Below are positions 1 to 44,273 of a stretch of 64,000 bases of DNA, piece by piece. The number at the start of each line of letters is the position of its first letter. Position 1 is the stretch's first letter. The notes under the pieces were generated by a model. It made no database searches and was not told the origin of the DNA. It saw nothing but the letters and a program-made list of their open reading frames with translations. Origin of the DNA: Planctomycetota bacterium (GTDB lineage: Bacteria > Planctomycetota > PLA2 > JAEUHO01). The stretch spans positions 6,488-70,487 of the forward strand of contig JANQJW010000103.1 of assembly GCA_028281445.1 (NCBI GenBank), in the 5' to 3' direction. Position numbers and translations under genes: made by a program.

Positions 1-252
1 GCGTGTAGTGCGCCGAGATCACCAGCACCGCGGTCGGCTTGGCCTGCGACGTCGCCCATGCGCTCCACTCGGCGCAGCGCCCCTTGTGCAGTGCGCTCAT
101 CGGGGAGCCGTGACTCACGTAGCCGACGGGCATCGTCGCCTTGGTCTTGCTCGGCGCCTCGGCATGTGCACGCGGCTGCGGGAGGGCCGCGAGGGCCGCG
201 GCCGCCGCCCCACCGGCCAGCACGCGGCGGCGCGTCAGGTGCTACTTCTTCA
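1..252 (-). CDS. Partial (3' end outside the window) class III extradiol dioxygenase of the LigB/DODA (YgiD-like) family with a twin-arginine signal peptide. The frame starting at ATG 252 has an in-frame TAG at 241-243, and CTG at 238-240 is an alternative start.
   Basis: Minus-strand translation from 252 leftwards reads MKK*HLTRRRVLAGGAAAAALAALPQPRAHAEAPSKTKATMPVGYVSHGSPMSALHKG...TAVLVISAHYT. The RRR motif plus hydrophobic stretch plus AHA is a Tat signal. GYVSHGSPM and ISAH(W/Y) are hallmark motifs of YgiD/DODA dioxygenases. GC3 is high. The ORF runs off the window edge, so it is absent from the ORF track. Confidence 0.4.
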
Positions 253-438
253 TGATTGCGGCAGCCTATCACGCTGTGCGCCGCGGCCGCCCCATCTGGT
301 CGTCGTGCCACCAGGTTGCCGGTCGCGCAGTCCTGCGTACCCGGCTCGGTGTGATCGGCTCGCAGCGACGCTCGATTCGATGATGCTCTCCGGACTGGCC
401 CTTTCGGGGGCGCGTGTTCGGATCCATACTCTGACCGC

Positions 439-1653
439 ATGATGGCAACGATCGTCGGCGCGGGCATCTGGGAGGCGGTCTCGGCGCTCGTAGCTGTGCT
501 CGGCGCATTGTTCGCGGGGTACAAGTACTTCGCGCACCGCGAACGCATGTCGGCCGTTCGCACCGCATTTCGGGAAGTCGTTGACTCCCTTGGCGCCGAC
601 GACGACGTCCATCGTCGCGCGGGCGCCATCATGCTGCGTCGCTTCTTCGATGCAAAGACGGAGCAGGGAGGAAGCGGGACCCCGTACGCGGGGGAAGCCT
701 TGAACGTGCTCGCAGCCACGCTACGCAACATCGAGACGGGCAGCTTGCAGAAGCTACTGGCTGACGGACTGGCGTATGCCCCGACACTGCGTTCGGCCGA
801 CTTGCAGAAGACCAATCTCCAAGGTGCCTATCTCGGACGCCGTGGCGACCACTGTGTAGACCTGTCCGGAGCAGACTTCTATAGGGCAGATCTCACAGGG
901 GCCTCGCTGAAAGAAGCGACCGCACAGCGGGCTGTCTTCTACCAGGCGCGTCTGGCCAAGACGGTCATGCGTGGCGCTGATCTCACTGGAGCAAACTTCT
1001 ACGAGGCAGACCTCCTGGGGGCCAACTTCACGGGCGCGAAACTCGAAGGCGCAAGCTTCTCGCGGGCGCGGAACATCCCTGAATCGATCCGCTCCCACCT
1101 GGATGAACGCGGCACGTACGGCGTTTCCGCAAGTGAGCGAGCTCCAGAGCCTGCAGAACCGCCTGCCGTGTTCCTCAGTCGGCCCGGCGCCGCCAGCATG
1201 GATGTCCGCACGTTGGTTCGTGCGCTGAAAGATCGTCTGAAGAGTGAAGGATTCCATGTGCGCGAGATCGAACCCGTCGACTACGCAACCACCGGCGCCG
1301 TTGCCGAGGTGCGCCGGGTAATGGCGGACTGCGCCGGAATCGTCGTCGTCGCGGTGCCGGATCTCGCGATCCGTGATGCCCAGTGGCGCACGGCTACTCC
1401 TCAAGCACGCGACATCCAGGATGTCGGCCTCTGCTCCCCCTGGACGAGCCTCGAGTTAGGAGTCGGAACGGGACTGGGGCTGCCTGTCCTTCTGGCCGTC
1501 GCTGCAGGCGTGAGTACCGAGATCTTCGACTACAGCACGCACGAACCGGAGTTCTACCAGATCCCCCTCACTGAAGATCATCGTTCGCGGGCCTTCCGCG
1601 AGTGCTTCGACGATTGGTGCGGCTCCGTGCGCGAGAAGCACCGGGAGGCTTGA
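439..1653 (+). CDS. membrane-anchored pentapeptide-repeat protein with a C-terminal TIR-like (flavodoxin-fold) domain
   Basis: The 404 aa ORF has an N-terminal TM helix (GAGIWEAVSALVAVLGALFAGY). A central run of A(D/N)LxG pentapeptide repeats follows (ADLQKTNLQGAYL...ADLTGASL...ADLTGANFYEADLLGANFTGAKLEGASF). The C-terminal ~150 aa begin VFLSRPGAASMDVRTLVRALKDRLKSEGFHV...IVVVAVPDLAIRDAQW...SPWTSLELGVGTG, which matches the TIR/DUF1863 betaA-alphaA-betaB pattern. Confidence 0.7.
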   Translation: MMATIVGAGIWEAVSALVAVLGALFAGYKYFAHRERMSAVRTAFREVVDSLGADDDVHRRAGAIMLRRFFDAKTEQGGSGTPYAGEALNVLAATLRNIETGSLQKLLADGLAYAPTLRSADLQKTNLQGAYLGRRGDHCVDLSGADFYRADLTGASLKEATAQRAVFYQARLAKTVMRGADLTGANFYEADLLGANFTGAKLEGASFSRARNIPESIRSHLDERGTYGVSASERAPEPAEPPAVFLSRPGAASMDVRTLVRALKDRLKSEGFHVREIEPVDYATTGAVAEVRRVMADCAGIVVVAVPDLAIRDAQWRTATPQARDIQDVGLCSPWTSLELGVGTGLGLPVLLAVAAGVSTEIFDYSTHEPEFYQIPLTEDHRSRAFRECFDDWCGSVREKHREA

Positions 1654-5801: not shown

Positions 5802-8800
5802 CTACTCGCCTTTCGCTCCGCCGGCCTCGCGGAGGACCGGATCGTGCACCAGCGCAAGAGCGCGCGTCTCGGGCGACATCAGCTCGCAGTAGCGATCGAC
5901 GAGCGCCGCGAACTGATCCCGCGCCTCGGGCGAAGCACGCGCCCGGACGAGGGTGCATGCGGCGTAGAGCTCGTCCCGCGTCGGCATGCGCTCGCGGAAG
6001 CGCTGGAACACGTCCCAAGCCTCGTCCCACCGTTCGGCCTCGCCGCACCGCGCGAGCCCGCAGAGCGCGGCGACCTGCGCGGCGTACTCGTCGGTCTCGC
6101 AAGCCAGCGCGTACGCCCTCTCGAAGTGCTCGCGCGCTGTCTCGTTCTCGCGGGCCCCCAGCGCCAACTCACCTCGCGCCACGCGGATCGGGCAGACCAA
6201 CGACGGCGAGTGCTCCGCATCGGCTTCTGCTTCGCGGAAGTGTGGTCGAGCCGCGTCGAGCTGGCCGCGTGCCTCGGCGATGCGGGCCCGCTGCATCTGC
6301 ACCGCGGCGCGCAGCGCCCCCCCTACCGAATCGCCTCCCGACGCTTCGTCCAGGTACACCGCGGCCCGATCAAAGTCGCCGCGACGCCGGAAGAGGCGCG
6401 CGAGCAAGACGCCGACACTGGCCATGTACTCGCCATCGGTGTTTTCCTTCGCAAGCAGGTAGCCCTGCTCGAGCAGCGCCAGCCCGTCGTCCCAGGCGCC
6501 CGCCTCGGCATGGACCTCCCCCAAGCGGATCAAGCCGCGCATCTCCAGCAGCCGATCGCTGATCTGGCGCGCCAGGTCCAGGCCGCGTGCGAGGTACTCC
6601 TCCGCGCGGTCGTCCTCCCCGATCAGGCGGTACATCTGTCCCAGGGCGAGGATCGACATGCAGCGACCGCGGTCGTCGCTTTGCTCCGCGCAGATCTCGA
6701 TGTGACGACGGAACACGTCCTCGGCTTCCTCGAACCGGCGCAGGTGGGCCAGGAGGCCGCCTATGTTCCCCAGCGCACTGGAGATGCCGTACGGATCCTG
6801 GATTTCCGTTACGCGGCGCTCGTACTTGCGGAACTGCTTCAGCGCCAACGGCCAGTTGCCCTGGCGCGAATACACCATGCCGATGTTGCCGACGCCACTG
6901 GCCTCGCCCCGCGCGTAGCCCGCTTCCTTCGCCGCGACGATGACGCGTTCGAAGCCCTCGATGGCCTCGTCGAGCCGGCCGAGATACATCTGGTGCCAGC
7001 CCCACGCCGTCCAGGCGCGGCCGCGCGCCATGGGTTCGCCCGTCGCTTCGGCGACCGCGATGGCTTCCTCGACGACCCTCTCGATCTCCGCGCGCCGACC
7101 TTGCGGCTCCAAGCAGTCGCGCAAGTGCGACAGCACCTCGACGCGGCGCACGCCGGTGACTTCGTCGTGGTCGGCAAGCAGGCGCCGGAACAAGTTCGTT
7201 CCCACATCCCAGAGATTGCGCTGCCAGATCTGCTCGTACGCGCCGTCGAGGTGATCGAGCGCCGCCGCGTGCCGCGTGCCCAGGGTCAGGTGCTGGCAGA
7301 GCTCCAGTGCGTCGTGCCCCGCAGGCGCGCGATCGCCCAGCCGCGCAAGCAGCACGTCGCCGATCGCCGCGTGATACGCCTCGCGCAGCGGCTCCGACAG
7401 CTGCTCGTAGAGCGTCTCTTGCACCTGATGGTGGTCGAAGACGAACGTCGGACCCGACGCGCGCACCAACCGCTTGACCCGCTCGATCCGTCCCAGTGCC
7501 CGTAGCACGGGAATGAGCTTCTGATCCAAGGCTTGTGCGATCAGCTTGGGCTCGAAGGTGGCGCCCAGGCACGCCGCGACGTCGAGGATCTCGCGCTCTT
7601 CTTCGGACAGGTCGTCGAGGCGCGCGCGAATGACCTCGCGTACCGACGCGGGCACTTCGATCTCGAGAATCGCGCCCGAGGTCGTCCAACTGCCGTCGGC
7701 CGTCGGGACGACCTGGCGCGCTTCCTTGAGCGCACGCACGATCTCGAAGACGAAGAACGGATTGCCGTCGGACTTCTCGGCAATGCGGAAGCCAAGCTGC
7801 TCGGCGAGGCGTCGTGAACCGAACGCGTCGATCAGGAGCTCGGTCAGCTCCTTGGGGCCGAGGCGAGAGAGCTCCAGGACCGTCGAGTGATCGAGCCGTT
7901 CGAGGGCGGAGCGCCATGCCGTGGACACCCCGGGCCGCATCGTCCCCACCAGCAACAACGGCAGGTCTACCGCGGCAGCGGCGAGCGCGGCGAACAGATC
8001 CAGCCCCTCCTGGGAAGCCAGGTGCAGGTCGTCGAGCACGAGAATGGTCGGGTGGTTGGTGCTGATGGACGCGACCGCCGCAACCAACGCAGCCTGCAGG
8101 CCGCCGCCATGGAGCGGCTCGGCATCGGCAGGCGGCGCATCGCCGCGCAGGAACGCGGCAAGCGCCGGCACGAGGGCCGGGGTGTCTGCAAGGATCCGCT
8201 CGAGACGCACCTCGAGGTCTGCGCGCCCGAGGAAGTCGGCCAGTGCAGCGCGTAACGCGTTGGCACCTTGCGACGCGGTACCGATCGGGTGGCTGCCGAA
8301 AAGCAGCTGCGCATCGGGGTGCGCGACACGCAGCTGCGTGGCCGCCTCGTCGATCAGGCGCGTCTTGCCGATCCCCGCCTCCCCTTCGACGAGCAGGACC
8401 TGCCCGCGCCCTTGAGCGGCCGCCTCGAACGCAGACGCAATGCGCGCGAGCTCCCCGTCGCGGCCGTATACCGCCGTGTCGCGTGGAATCCGGATGCGGC
8501 GAAGCGGCCTGCGGGTACGGCGCTCCACGTCGCGCGCACGCTCCCGCCACCAGTCGCTCGCCTCGCCTTCGTCGAGCAGCTCGATCAACGCGGCCGCCGA
8601 GGGAATGCGCTCGTCGCGCGAGGTCTCCAGCAGCGTGTGCACGAGCTCTTCGAAGAACGCCGAGCACTGCGGGTTGACCTCACCGAGCCGGCGGAAGTTG
8701 CCCGCGACCTGCGCGCGCACCGACGACGCGACGTCGCCGGAGGGGACGGGGTGCTGCCCCGTTGCCAGCTCGTAGAGCACGAGCCCGAGGGCATAGAGGT

Positions 8801-9536
8801 CTGCGCGGGCATCGGGTGTCAGCCCCTTCCCGTCGATCTGCTCGGGCGCGCAGTACCGGATCGTCCCGATGAACTGGCCGGTCTGGGACAGACGGGCAAG
8901 GTCGTCCACCGGAAACGCCACGCCGAAGTCCATAACCTTCACCACGTGATCCGGCGTGATGAGCACGTTCTCGGGCTTCAGATCGCGGTGCACGATGCCC
9001 TGCTCACCGATCGCATGCAGGCCGCCCGCCACCTCATGCGCGATGTGGCGGCACAGGTCCTCCGGGACGCGGCCGAGCTCCTGCAGCAGCCGGTCCAGCG
9101 TCTGCCCTTCCACGTACTCCATGACCAACGCGCCGTCATCGGTCACGCCTAGTGTGCGAACCACGTTGTCGTGGATGACGCGGCGGCCAAGCGTCGCCTC
9201 GCGGGTGAACCGTTCGCGGAAGTCGTCGCGCCCGGCCAGATGCGGGTGCAGCACCTTCAGCGCGACCGACCCCTCGGGTCCTTCCGCGAGGTACACGGAT
9301 CCCATGCCCCCGACGCCGAGCAAGGAAGCGATTCGGTACACACCGAGCTGCGAGCCGGGGGGCAGGTCCACCTGGGTGCCGAGGCTCGCATCCGGGCGCT
9401 CGTGCTGGGCGAGCAGCTCCTCGACCTCGTCCCGCACTTCCGGGTCGCCCGCTAGCAAGACCTCCCGTTCGGAGCGCGGTGCCGTGCGCGCCCTCTCGAA
9501 GAGGTCGCAGATCCGCTGCCATCGATCGTCGCTCAC
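5802..9536 (-). CDS. STAND-type Ser/Thr protein kinase with an N-terminal Hanks kinase domain, a central AAA/P-loop NTPase and C-terminal TPR repeats
   Basis: Kinase motifs are GVGGMGSVYLA, VALK, HRDLKPENVL, DFG and APE. A Walker A LLVEGEAGIGKTRL follows, then about 600 aa of TPR-like repeats. The preferred start is GTG at 9534-9536, 8 nt after an AGAGAGG Shine-Dalgarno, giving MSDDRWQRICDLFERA. The track ORF start at 9629 is an alternative. The stop is TAG at 5802-5804. Confidence 0.85.
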   Translation of the reverse strand: MSDDRWQRICDLFERARTAPRSEREVLLAGDPEVRDEVEELLAQHERPDASLGTQVDLPPGSQLGVYRIASLLGVGGMGSVYLAEGPEGSVALKVLHPHLAGRDDFRERFTREATLGRRVIHDNVVRTLGVTDDGALVMEYVEGQTLDRLLQELGRVPEDLCRHIAHEVAGGLHAIGEQGIVHRDLKPENVLITPDHVVKVMDFGVAFPVDDLARLSQTGQFIGTIRYCAPEQIDGKGLTPDARADLYALGLVLYELATGQHPVPSGDVASSVRAQVAGNFRRLGEVNPQCSAFFEELVHTLLETSRDERIPSAAALIELLDEGEASDWWRERARDVERRTRRPLRRIRIPRDTAVYGRDGELARIASAFEAAAQGRGQVLLVEGEAGIGKTRLIDEAATQLRVAHPDAQLLFGSHPIGTASQGANALRAALADFLGRADLEVRLERILADTPALVPALAAFLRGDAPPADAEPLHGGGLQAALVAAVASISTNHPTILVLDDLHLASQEGLDLFAALAAAAVDLPLLLVGTMRPGVSTAWRSALERLDHSTVLELSRLGPKELTELLIDAFGSRRLAEQLGFRIAEKSDGNPFFVFEIVRALKEARQVVPTADGSWTTSGAILEIEVPASVREVIRARLDDLSEEEREILDVAACLGATFEPKLIAQALDQKLIPVLRALGRIERVKRLVRASGPTFVFDHHQVQETLYEQLSEPLREAYHAAIGDVLLARLGDRAPAGHDALELCQHLTLGTRHAAALDHLDGAYEQIWQRNLWDVGTNLFRRLLADHDEVTGVRRVEVLSHLRDCLEPQGRRAEIERVVEEAIAVAEATGEPMARGRAWTAWGWHQMYLGRLDEAIEGFERVIVAAKEAGYARGEASGVGNIGMVYSRQGNWPLALKQFRKYERRVTEIQDPYGISSALGNIGGLLAHLRRFEEAEDVFRRHIEICAEQSDDRGRCMSILALGQMYRLIGEDDRAEEYLARGLDLARQISDRLLEMRGLIRLGEVHAEAGAWDDGLALLEQGYLLAKENTDGEYMASVGVLLARLFRRRGDFDRAAVYLDEASGGDSVGGALRAAVQMQRARIAEARGQLDAARPHFREAEADAEHSPSLVCPIRVARGELALGARENETAREHFERAYALACETDEYAAQVAALCGLARCGEAERWDEAWDVFQRFRERMPTRDELYAACTLVRARASPEARDQFAALVDRYCELMSPETRALALVHDPVLREAGGAKGE

Positions 9537-9692
9537 GCGCGAGACCTCTCTTGCGACAGCCGGTTCACTTGCATCGGCGGCAGGATACGCGAGGCCGGGG
9601 CCGCGAGTATTTGCGACTCGCGTGGGCACCGCCGATACTTGCGGCGAATCAGAAGCACTGCTCGATCGCCGCCAGCACTGGCGGTTTCTGCC

Positions 9693-43985: not shown

Positions 43986-44197
43986 TCTGGCCAGGGTGAC
44001 GGGACTTGCACCCGCTTCCTCCGGCTCGACAAGCCGGGATCTCGTCTCCTTCGACCTCACCCCGAGGTGCGCGCTCATGTATGGACGTCACGGAACCGCG
44101 CGCAGGCTCCATGGCGCAAAAAGGTCATTGCGGGTGGACGCGAACCACCGCCGCCCCGGCTCCGAGACGGTACGCTGGATGCTCGCCCTGAGATGGT

Positions 44198-44273
44198 TGG
44201 TTGCGGGGGAGGGAGTTGCACCCCCGACCTCTCGCGTATCAGACGAACGCTCTTCTCGCTGAGCTACCCCGCA
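44198..44273 (-). tRNA. tRNA-Ile(GAU)-like gene with atypical D and T loops (possible tRNA pseudogene or tRNA-like element)
   Basis: The reverse complement of 44197-44273 folds as a cloverleaf: a 7 bp acceptor stem (UGCGGGG/CCCCGCA) plus ACCA; a D arm GCUC-AGCGAGAA-GAGC; an anticodon arm UUCGU-CUGAUAC-GCGAG (U33, anticodon GAU, A37, two G-U pairs); and a T arm GGGGG-UGCAACU-CCCUC. It is colinear with canonical tRNA-Ile(GAU). However the D loop lacks the G18G19 doublet and the T loop is UGCAACU instead of TTCRANY. Confidence 0.4.

Follow-up and report, generated by a model that had tools for sequence, protein, structure and literature searches.

A membrane-anchored pentapeptide-repeat protein from a Planctomycetota bacterium with a predicted TIR/NDT-like C-terminal domain

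Results

Architecture of the gene and its product

The 64,000-nucleotide stretch of DNA analysed here (hereinafter designated the window; Planctomycetota bacterium, GenBank assembly GCA_028281445.1, contig JANQJW010000103.1, positions 6,488 to 70,487) carries near its left edge a gene for a 404-residue protein that begins with a membrane anchor and continues with a helical module, some 19 pentapeptide repeats and, at its C-terminus, an α/β domain of about 165 residues (Table 1). A first-pass annotation of the window had described the product as a membrane-anchored pentapeptide-repeat protein with a TIR-like C-terminal domain, and the motif strings that it quoted are all present in the open reading frame: VFLS at residues 244-247, IVVVAVPD at 301-308 and SPWTSLELG at 333-341. 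Searching about 5.8 billion proteins with the 404-residue sequence returned 1,440 matches, the best 120 of which are all about 400 residues long and cover 92-99% of the query at 43-70% identity. Because an alignment of 111 full-length homologues contains many invariant columns in each of the three modules, the open reading frame is a real gene and its architecture is conserved far above chance. The gene is flanked by a divergent gene upstream and a convergent gene downstream, and therefore forms a transcription unit of its own.

Table 1 Features of the gene at 439..1653, its neighbours in the window and the loci of its relatives. Positions are those of the window unless a locus handle precedes them.
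Feature	Position	Residues	Strand	Remarks
Complete gene	439..1653	404 codons + stop	+	ATG start; single transcription unit
N-terminal hydrophobic helix	439..522	1-28	+	Predicted signal-anchor (N-out, C-in); best 19-residue Kyte-Doolittle value ~1.9
Stalk helix and three-helix module capping the solenoid	523..777	29-113	+	No family assignment
Pentapeptide repeats	790..1074	118-212	+	~19 units, ~5 coils; right-handed quadrilateral β-helix
Solenoid end and lower-confidence linker	1075..1158	213-240	+	pLDDT down to ~75 near residues 231-240
C-terminal flavodoxin-like α/β domain (TIR/NDT-like, predicted)	1159..1650	241-404	+	No Pfam model for the family
VFLSRPG, first strand and following loop	1168..1188	244-250	+	F245, S247 and P249 conserved whether the domain is fused or stands alone
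Inserted β-hairpin	1363..1431	309-331	+	Between third strand and Glu-bearing helix; DSSP strands 309-316 and 324-331
Signature motif, SPWTSLELGVGTGLGLP	1435..1485	333-349	+	W335-x3-E339-x-G-x-(A/G)-x5-P349; E339 at 1453-1455, putative catalytic Glu
Partial open reading frame running off the left window edge	2-244		-	Resembles YgiD/LigB-type extradiol dioxygenases (PDB 2pw6, E=0.0067)
Multiheme c-type cytochrome, 1,070 residues	1707..4919		-	Convergent with 439..1653
Fused form, window locus				Neighbours: dioxygenase upstream, cytochrome downstream
Fused form, L001				Neighbours: Nuo operon, MsrAB, DUF2284
Fused form, L002 (Rivibacter)				Neighbours: LptFG, CbiX, LysR regulator, aminotransferase
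Fused form, L003/L004 (gammaproteobacterial metagenome-assembled genome)				Neighbours: hopene cyclase, DUF924, photolyase
Fused form, L005 (Ilumatobacteraceae)				Neighbour: amidohydrolase
Fused form, L006 = L031 (Pyrinomonadaceae)				Neighbours: BshC, MutL, MsrA
ThsB-type TIR/8xMP/DUF7701/domain cluster	L021:1131-2842; also L022, L023:343-2038, L024

The single N-terminal transmembrane helix and the central pentapeptide-repeat solenoid of the first-pass annotation are both borne out. A hydrophobic segment comparable to residues 1-28 occurs in 108 of the 111 homologues. No basic residue precedes this segment, and K29, H33, R34 and R36 come after it; since the K/R-rich stretch lies directly behind the hydrophobic residues, the positive-inside rule fits an N-out/C-in anchor that would leave the remainder of the protein in the cytoplasm. 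In a full-length AlphaFold2 model built with the 111-sequence alignment (mean predicted local distance difference test score (pLDDT) 92.6, predicted TM-score (pTM) 0.78), anchor and stalk form one long helix (residues 2-51), followed by three helices over residues 56-113 that carry the invariant residues R67, R68, F69, Q104, K105, L107, D109 and L111. The repeats of the central module form a genuine PF00805 solenoid: the Pfam model matches residues ~115-217 with 78.8 bits against a cutoff of 20.2 (E=2e-22), the five-residue strand periodicity of the modelled β-helix is strict over residues 121-211 (pLDDT ~97), and a full-length Foldseek search retrieves the pentapeptide proteins NP275/276, HetL, Rfr23, MfpA, AlbG and QnrB1.

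Predicted fold of the C-terminal domain

Modelled in isolation, the C-terminal domain adopts the same fold as in the full-length protein (pLDDT 91.6, pTM 0.87), with strands 243-247, 273-275, 300-305, 350-354 and 372-376 alternating with helices 254-269, 287-296, 334-345 and 384-403. The inserted hairpin between the third strand and the following helix carries W316, R317 and T320, which are conserved within the pentapeptide-fused subfamily. The flavodoxin-like fold of the domain is a solid prediction, and it agrees with the first-pass proposal for the region, as does the fusion of the domain to anchor and solenoid across the 111 aligned homologues. The fold as such is common to TIR and non-TIR families.

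Foldseek searches of the PDB with the isolated domain gave modest scores (best E=3.8e-4, query-normalised TM-scores of about 0.5) and a mixture of flavodoxin-like proteins. The top match is ArsH (E=3.8e-4), and flavin mononucleotide (FMN) reductases and flavodoxins, including ArsH and SsuE, make up about 20 of the top 50. NDT-like N-glycosidases (BcmB and DNPH1) contribute 10 of the 50 and have the best target-normalised TM-scores (0.59-0.69); over this and the full-length search together, the values are 0.66-0.70 for BcmB (PDB 4jen, E=6.9e-4) and 0.59-0.69 for DNPH1 (root-mean-square deviation 3.8-5.6 Å). Another six are TIR domains, among them those of EcThsB2, SARM1, IL-1RAcPb and TIR-STING (E from 5e-4 to 5e-3, query-normalised TM-scores 0.45-0.57). 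In the full-length search, the sole match that is not a pentapeptide protein is again BcmB, with a target-normalised TM-score of 0.67-0.70. Among predicted viral structures (BFVD), the named matches are mostly nucleoside 2-deoxyribosyltransferases (best E=5.2e-5, root-mean-square deviation 4.0 Å), together with several TIR proteins. The domain is probably best placed beside the NDT and TIR families rather than with the FMN binders, a placement that the predicted fold by itself does not prove.

Sequence searches place the domain outside curated families

Family searches were run with the single sequence, with profiles of 54 and 40 sequences, and with 177 members individually (54 fused and 123 stand-alone) at E<=10. 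No match of the C-terminal domain reached threshold in Pfam, NCBIfam, PADLOC or the PDB sequences, and the domain is a family without a curated model in the copies of Pfam, NCBIfam and PADLOC that we searched. Neither the window domain nor any of the 54 fused and 123 stand-alone members matched TIR, TIR_2 or ThsB_TIR through the domain at E<=10; the 177 members and five consensus sequences gave no SLOG, STALD or LOG match in Pfam at the same limit; and no flavodoxin or FMN_red model was matched in any scan, those with consensus sequences included. Neither the window protein nor a stand-alone copy of the domain (L021) matched any family of PADLOC-DB v2.

Weak signals emerge from the family consensus. 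Out of 24,736 Pfam models, the only enzyme folds that it touches are TIR_2 (E=0.13) and Nuc_deoxyrib_tr (E=0.23), the latter with 12.1-12.3 bits against a cutoff of 28.8 and confined to the segment with the Glu motif; a single stand-alone member out of 123 also touches Nuc_deoxyrib_tr (PF05014, E=0.12). When the hairpin is excised from the consensus in silico, the TIR_2 match spans model positions 7-113 of 122 at E=0.0037 and 18.2 bits, against a cutoff of 28. The hairpin-excised consensus was also compared with 177,635 PDB sequences, where the best match, not significant at E=0.32, is BcmB; the phmmer alignment pairs IEaGmAaalG with IEiGwAsamG, so that Glu, Gly and Ala are aligned. BcmB was thereby reached independently by fold search and by consensus sequence search.

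The first-pass annotation had assigned the region to the TIR/DUF1863 type. A flavodoxin-like fold with TIR domains among its best structural matches stands; membership of TIR or DUF1863 does not. Besides the lack of a threshold match, hhalign returned probabilities below 1% when the profile was compared with individual TIR_2 and ThsB-like sequences. For ThsB_TIR (DUF1863), a 41-sequence alignment of a PF08937 family was built and the profiles were compared, giving a collinear, motif-preserving alignment with a probability of 1.2-1.4% and a score of 17.5. Block-shuffled controls scored 19.1 +/- 2.6, and 100 of 200 shuffles equalled or exceeded the score of the real comparison; this alignment was discarded as evidence. 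Taken together, the fold matches, the weak TIR_2 and Nuc_deoxyrib_tr signals of the consensus and the BcmB alignment suggest that the family is a divergent branch of the TIR/NDT assemblage with a hairpin insertion. In a 2026 preprint, the Pfam clans CL0173 and CL0498 are handled as a single similarity network (10.64898/2026.05.01.722283).

A conserved glutamate at the putative active site

Pentapeptide-fused and stand-alone members of the family share F245, S247, P249, the Gly that ends the third strand, P334, W335, E339, P349, G361, F363 and W393 (numbering of the window protein), among which E339 is the sole charged residue conserved across both subfamilies. The W, E and P of the signature motif are invariant in alignment A3, and 117 of the 123 stand-alone members contain the pattern W-x3-E-x-(G)-x-(A/L)-x5-P. 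In the predicted structure, E339 lies at the N-terminus of the helix that follows the third strand. The first-pass annotation had called for a search for a catalytic Glu in this region, and a universally conserved Glu, putatively catalytic, is found there. We take its position to be that of the DNPH1 nucleophile E104 and of the catalytic Glu in TIR NADases.

Some stand-alone copies of the domain accompany TIR genes

A profile search of 1.84 billion representative proteins retrieved 1,205 clusters at 50% identity with E<=0.001, 816 of them with E<=1e-10, distributed across bacteria and at least one archaeon. Apart from the pentapeptide fusions, the family includes domain-only proteins of ~160-190 residues, a tandem duplication (P0190) and other fusions, such as pentapeptide repeats and domain followed by RyR (PF02026, E=8.5e-17; P0184) or by a weak DUF4878-like tail (P0181). 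One protein (P0228, L020:236-1282) joins the domain to a TIR_2 domain with a score of 97.5 bits.

A stand-alone copy occurs in a cluster with a ThsB-type TIR gene (PF08937), the octameric membrane protein 8xMP (PF24838) and DUF7701 in L021/L022 and, independently, in L023/L024. The small TIR protein of this cluster has about 128 residues and belongs to a family with 2,406 matches. In L021 the cluster abuts a short prokaryotic Argonaute gene (PADLOC pAgo_I, E=4.8e-157) with two unannotated partner genes. PADLOC recognises no system in the cluster, and a literature search on 8xMP and DUF7701 found nothing relevant; it looks like an undescribed defence cassette.

One further stand-alone copy has Mrr and HNH genes around it and a WYL regulator in the vicinity (Cytobacillus, L027), and another lies in an island beside smpB that also contains a 1,237-residue STAND-like NTPase with tetratricopeptide repeats (TPR), a reverse transcriptase and an IS21 element (Terrisporobacter, L028). 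The archaeal copy, WP_012660041.1, is encoded on the megaplasmid pHLAC01 of Halorubrum lacusprofundi (L057, NC_012030.1 37287-39580) and is 47.5% identical to a Cytobacillus protein; its gene immediately follows a TIR gene of the same orientation and precedes an adenylate/guanylate cyclase-domain gene. Further members of this island are another TIR gene, QueC, a PfkB kinase, ATPases, a PIN gene and an ISH3 transposase. A link between the domain and a TIR gene, by adjacency or fusion, was seen four times independently, and since the two coexist on these occasions, the domain is distinct from canonical TIR. The contexts of L030 (Echinicola), L058 (a Bacillus thuringiensis megaplasmid) and L025 are uninformative or odd. 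In L025 (1328-2489) the stand-alone copy P0194 sits between ureA and ureB, which encode urease gamma and beta, downstream of ureD.

Surroundings of the pentapeptide-fused form

The company of the fused form was compared at six independent loci, including the window (Table 1); scans of genome and metagenome collections with the single protein had yielded three independent full-length loci. Conservation of the neighbourhood in relatives, for which the first-pass annotation had proposed to look, is not found: no neighbour of the fused form recurs as a conserved one across the six loci, no TIR partner lies near it in any of them, and no ThsB partner accompanies the window gene. MsrAB or MsrA occurs within one or two genes of the fused homologue at two of the six loci (L001:5994-7157 and L006:7330-7998), a proximity that may be a coincidence. 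The multiheme cytochrome adjoins the window gene as the annotation had remarked, and the adjacency appears incidental; a functional link was rejected, given that the two genes are convergent and that the cytochrome neighbours no homologue at the loci of the relatives examined.

The 404-residue protein is 63-67% identical to homologues from an actinomycetote (L005) and from a gammaproteobacterial metagenome-assembled genome (P0007), and these cross-phylum identities suggest that the fused gene has spread horizontally as an accessory gene.

Other genes in the window were inspected briefly. The cytochrome gives weak, sub-threshold Pfam and NCBIfam matches alone (Cytochrome_CBB3, P460, NrfH and QrcA fragments) and appears to be a poorly catalogued large cytochrome. 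The dioxygenase-like partial reading frame at the left edge (2-244) contains a twin-arginine-like stretch, TRRRVLAGGAAAAALAAL, with an in-frame stop directly upstream, and its RRR lies outside the reach of any ATG, GTG or TTG start. On the reverse strand at 5802-9629 lies a gene for a Ser/Thr kinase of 1,275 residues, the C-terminal part of which is ATPase-like and rich in TPR; it matches the PADLOC models PD-T4-6 and mad6 via the kinase domain alone (E=9e-69). The reading frame after it (5161-~5760, reverse strand) reads as a putative sigma factor of the extracytoplasmic function type. At 43991-44064 (reverse strand), Rfam calls an extra tRNA (39.9 bits), which ARAGORN does not, adjoining tRNA-Ile(GAT) at 44198-44273.

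Discussion

Our preferred reading, which we hold tentatively, is that the 404-residue protein is a regulated nucleotide N-glycosidase effector held at the membrane, acting as a sensor-effector in conflict or stress signalling rather than in core metabolism; its chemistry, substrate, gating and role are what we infer here. The protein would span the inner membrane once with its bulk facing the cytoplasm, and its C-terminal domain would cleave the base-ribose bond of a nucleotide by means of E339. The substrate could be nicotinamide adenine dinucleotide (NAD+), as for TIR enzymes, or a nucleoside monophosphate (NMP), as for BcmB and DNPH1. Pentapeptide solenoids are protein-binding rods, some of which mimic DNA; here, solenoid and helical module together would serve at the membrane as a scaffold for binding or oligomerisation, and this scaffold would gate the N-glycosidase activity, so that the protein may act as a self-contained sensor-effector. 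A defence role of the fused form is plausible, and the stand-alone copies beside or fused with TIR genes in defence islands lend it indirect support. Repeat scaffolds fused to effectors in conflict systems include pentapeptide solenoids (PMC7159879, PMC8195603, PMC10853773).

Several observations weigh against this reading. No sequence-level match reaches the threshold of any family, the ThsB_TIR comparison does not rise above its shuffled controls, and the Foldseek scores are modest (E ~1e-4, query-normalised TM-score ~0.5), with FMN-type flavodoxin-like proteins equalling NDT and TIR proteins in number among the PDB matches. For the equivalence of E339 to a catalytic Glu, the evidence is its topological position and a single alignment that is not significant. 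Identities in alignments A1 and A2 show stronger conservation in the N-terminal half than in the putative enzyme domain, an unusual pattern for a phage sensor. As for genomic context, the surroundings of the fused form at the six loci are of a housekeeping kind, and PADLOC recognises a defence gene near one of them only, L001, where a type IV restriction enzyme (Mrr) is encoded at a distance of 2.5 kb. Neither tblastn against the 50,697 phage records nor any of three scans of viral contigs retrieved the domain, the sole viral match being confined to the pentapeptide part, so that no direct link to phage emerges.

The same data have to be read against other accounts of the domain. It could be a non-catalytic nucleotide-binding sensor like the SLOG/STALD domain of ThsA, with solenoid and anchor as the output. 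TIR enzymes generate signals in Thoeris-type systems, and a sensor of this kind would make sense of a domain that is repeatedly found beside or fused with canonical TIR genes and that is accompanied in L021 and L023 by 8xMP, a possible membrane effector. We nevertheless consider it unlikely, because SLOG, STALD and LOG models are not touched even at E<=10 and no TIR partner lies near the fused family at its six loci; moreover, an enzyme would equally be expected to have an invariant Glu at the catalytic position. SLOG domains carry a glycine-rich loop at the first strand, to which the F-x-S-x-P of the present family bears, by our own reading, no likeness. A housekeeping role also deserves consideration, in which a constitutively active, membrane-tethered NDT-like hydrolase or transferase would sanitise or salvage nucleotides, like DNPH1 or BcmB/MilB, with the solenoid as a mere structural spacer and no part in conflict. 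BcmB and DNPH1 are the best structural and sequence neighbours of the domain, the fused form lies among housekeeping genes (Nuo, LptFG, MutL, MsrA, hopene cyclase) and the whole protein is strongly conserved. Yet no operon with nucleotide metabolism genes is conserved, the 63-67% identities across phyla argue for a horizontally transferred accessory gene, the stand-alone paralogues concentrate in defence or mobile islands, and an elaborate, conserved solenoid with its cap is hard to explain as a spacer, so this account, too, seems unlikely to us.

Much less probable is an FMN-binding, flavodoxin-like redox module that partners the multiheme cytochrome or other redox proteins. ArsH as the top fold match, the ~20 FMN reductases and flavodoxins among the top 50, the adjoining cytochrome and the MsrA genes near the homologues in L001 and L006 would all accord with it. 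However, TM-scores fall to 0.33-0.46 when normalised to the larger FMN targets, none of the scans touches a flavodoxin or FMN-reductase model of Pfam, the cytochrome adjoins the gene in none of the relatives, and the stand-alone copies accompany TIR rather than redox genes. FMN binders contain phosphate loops of the form T/S-x-T-G-x-T or G-S-x-R-x-x-S, and by our reading the strand-1 loop FLSRPGAAS, of which only F-x-S-x-P is conserved, has neither. Least tenable, and largely refuted, is the view that the domain is an ordinary TIR or ThsB (DUF1863) member poorly scored by current models. The VF(I/L)S first strand and the W-x3-E motif do, to our eye, resemble TIR motifs, and the hairpin-excised consensus reaches TIR_2 at E=0.0037; against this, none of 177 natural sequences matches a TIR model through the domain, the ThsB_TIR profile comparison stays at the null level, and P0228 contains the domain alongside a bona fide TIR_2 domain, so that the two are clearly distinct families.

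A bolder version of the N-glycosidase reading, which we regard as rather improbable, would make the domain a large new family of TIR/NDT-fold enzymes that works with canonical TIR proteins, as part of an undescribed four-gene cassette of ThsB-type TIR, 8xMP, DUF7701 and domain. The form in the window would then be a captured single-gene membrane immune sensor-effector, in which a DNA-mimicking solenoid baits a DNA-binding protein of the invader and triggers cleavage of NAD+ or NMP.

TIR- and NDT-type nucleotide-cleaving domains are central immune effectors and signal generators in bacteria, plants and animals, and divergent families are still emerging, DUF4062/Swarozyc having been described in 2026. 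Should the domain prove to have N-glycosidase activity, the TIR/NDT assemblage would gain a new branch, and with it would come a new candidate defence cassette and a new way of linking such an effector to a membrane-held pentapeptide solenoid; should the domain be a metabolic hydrolase instead, it would give a function to widespread hypothetical proteins annotated as "pentapeptide repeat-containing". Each module of the protein is of a known kind, with the C-terminal domain uncatalogued in the database copies searched, and in the literature searched we found no description of the architecture that joins anchor, cap, pentapeptide solenoid and TIR/NDT-like domain. The most valuable by-product of the analysis is the recurrent cassette with ThsB-like TIR, 8xMP and DUF7701, and the domain family may be an unrecognised player in bacterial immunity.

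Compared with known systems, the domain comes close to two groups of enzymes. With the NDT-like N-glycosidases (clan Nribosyltransf), such as the cytidine monophosphate N-glycosidase BcmB/MilB and DNPH1, it agrees in predicted fold and in the order of the strands (target-normalised TM-scores of 0.65-0.70, the best obtained). The likeness may extend to the Glu at the start of the helix behind the third strand, within E-x-G-x-A followed by a (K/L)-P strand, and BcmB aligns with the domain residue for residue over the E-x-G-x-A motif, in the non-significant alignment mentioned above. The NDT-like motif is D-x-G-T-x-x-E; in the domain, by contrast, W335 takes the place of G-T, a 23-residue β-hairpin is inserted before the Glu helix, and the score reaches 12 bits against the cutoff of 28.8. 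The fusion of the domain to membrane anchor and pentapeptide solenoid has, to our knowledge, no counterpart among NDT-like enzymes.

With the TIR NADases (TIR_2, ThsB, SARM1-type) and the TIR-like DUF4062/Swarozyc family, the domain has in common the flavodoxin-like fold, the VF(I/L)S first strand and, by topology, a conserved Glu after the third strand, as well as modular fusion to sensors or scaffold repeats and stand-alone copies in defence islands. DUF4062/Swarozyc is likewise a divergent TIR-like family that is recognisable mainly through structure (10.64898/2026.05.01.722283). Unlike the TIR NADases, the domain stays below the threshold of all TIR models, lacks profile similarity to ThsB_TIR and a PADLOC match, and occurs alongside canonical TIR domains, not in their place. 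The stand-alone clusters recall Thoeris (ThsB and ThsA) in combining a ThsB-type TIR, a membrane protein and a nucleotide-fold domain beside defence genes, whereas the partners 8xMP, DUF7701 and the domain are not ThsA (SIR2-SLOG or Macro-TM). The likeness to SLOG/STALD sensors lies only in the genomic association with TIR genes. Finally, the protein shares its PF00805 solenoid with the pentapeptide-repeat proteins MfpA, Qnr, AlbG, HetL and Rfr; these are mostly soluble solenoids, some of them DNA mimics that act on gyrase, whereas the 404-residue protein adds to the solenoid a membrane anchor, a conserved helical cap and a C-terminal enzyme-like domain.

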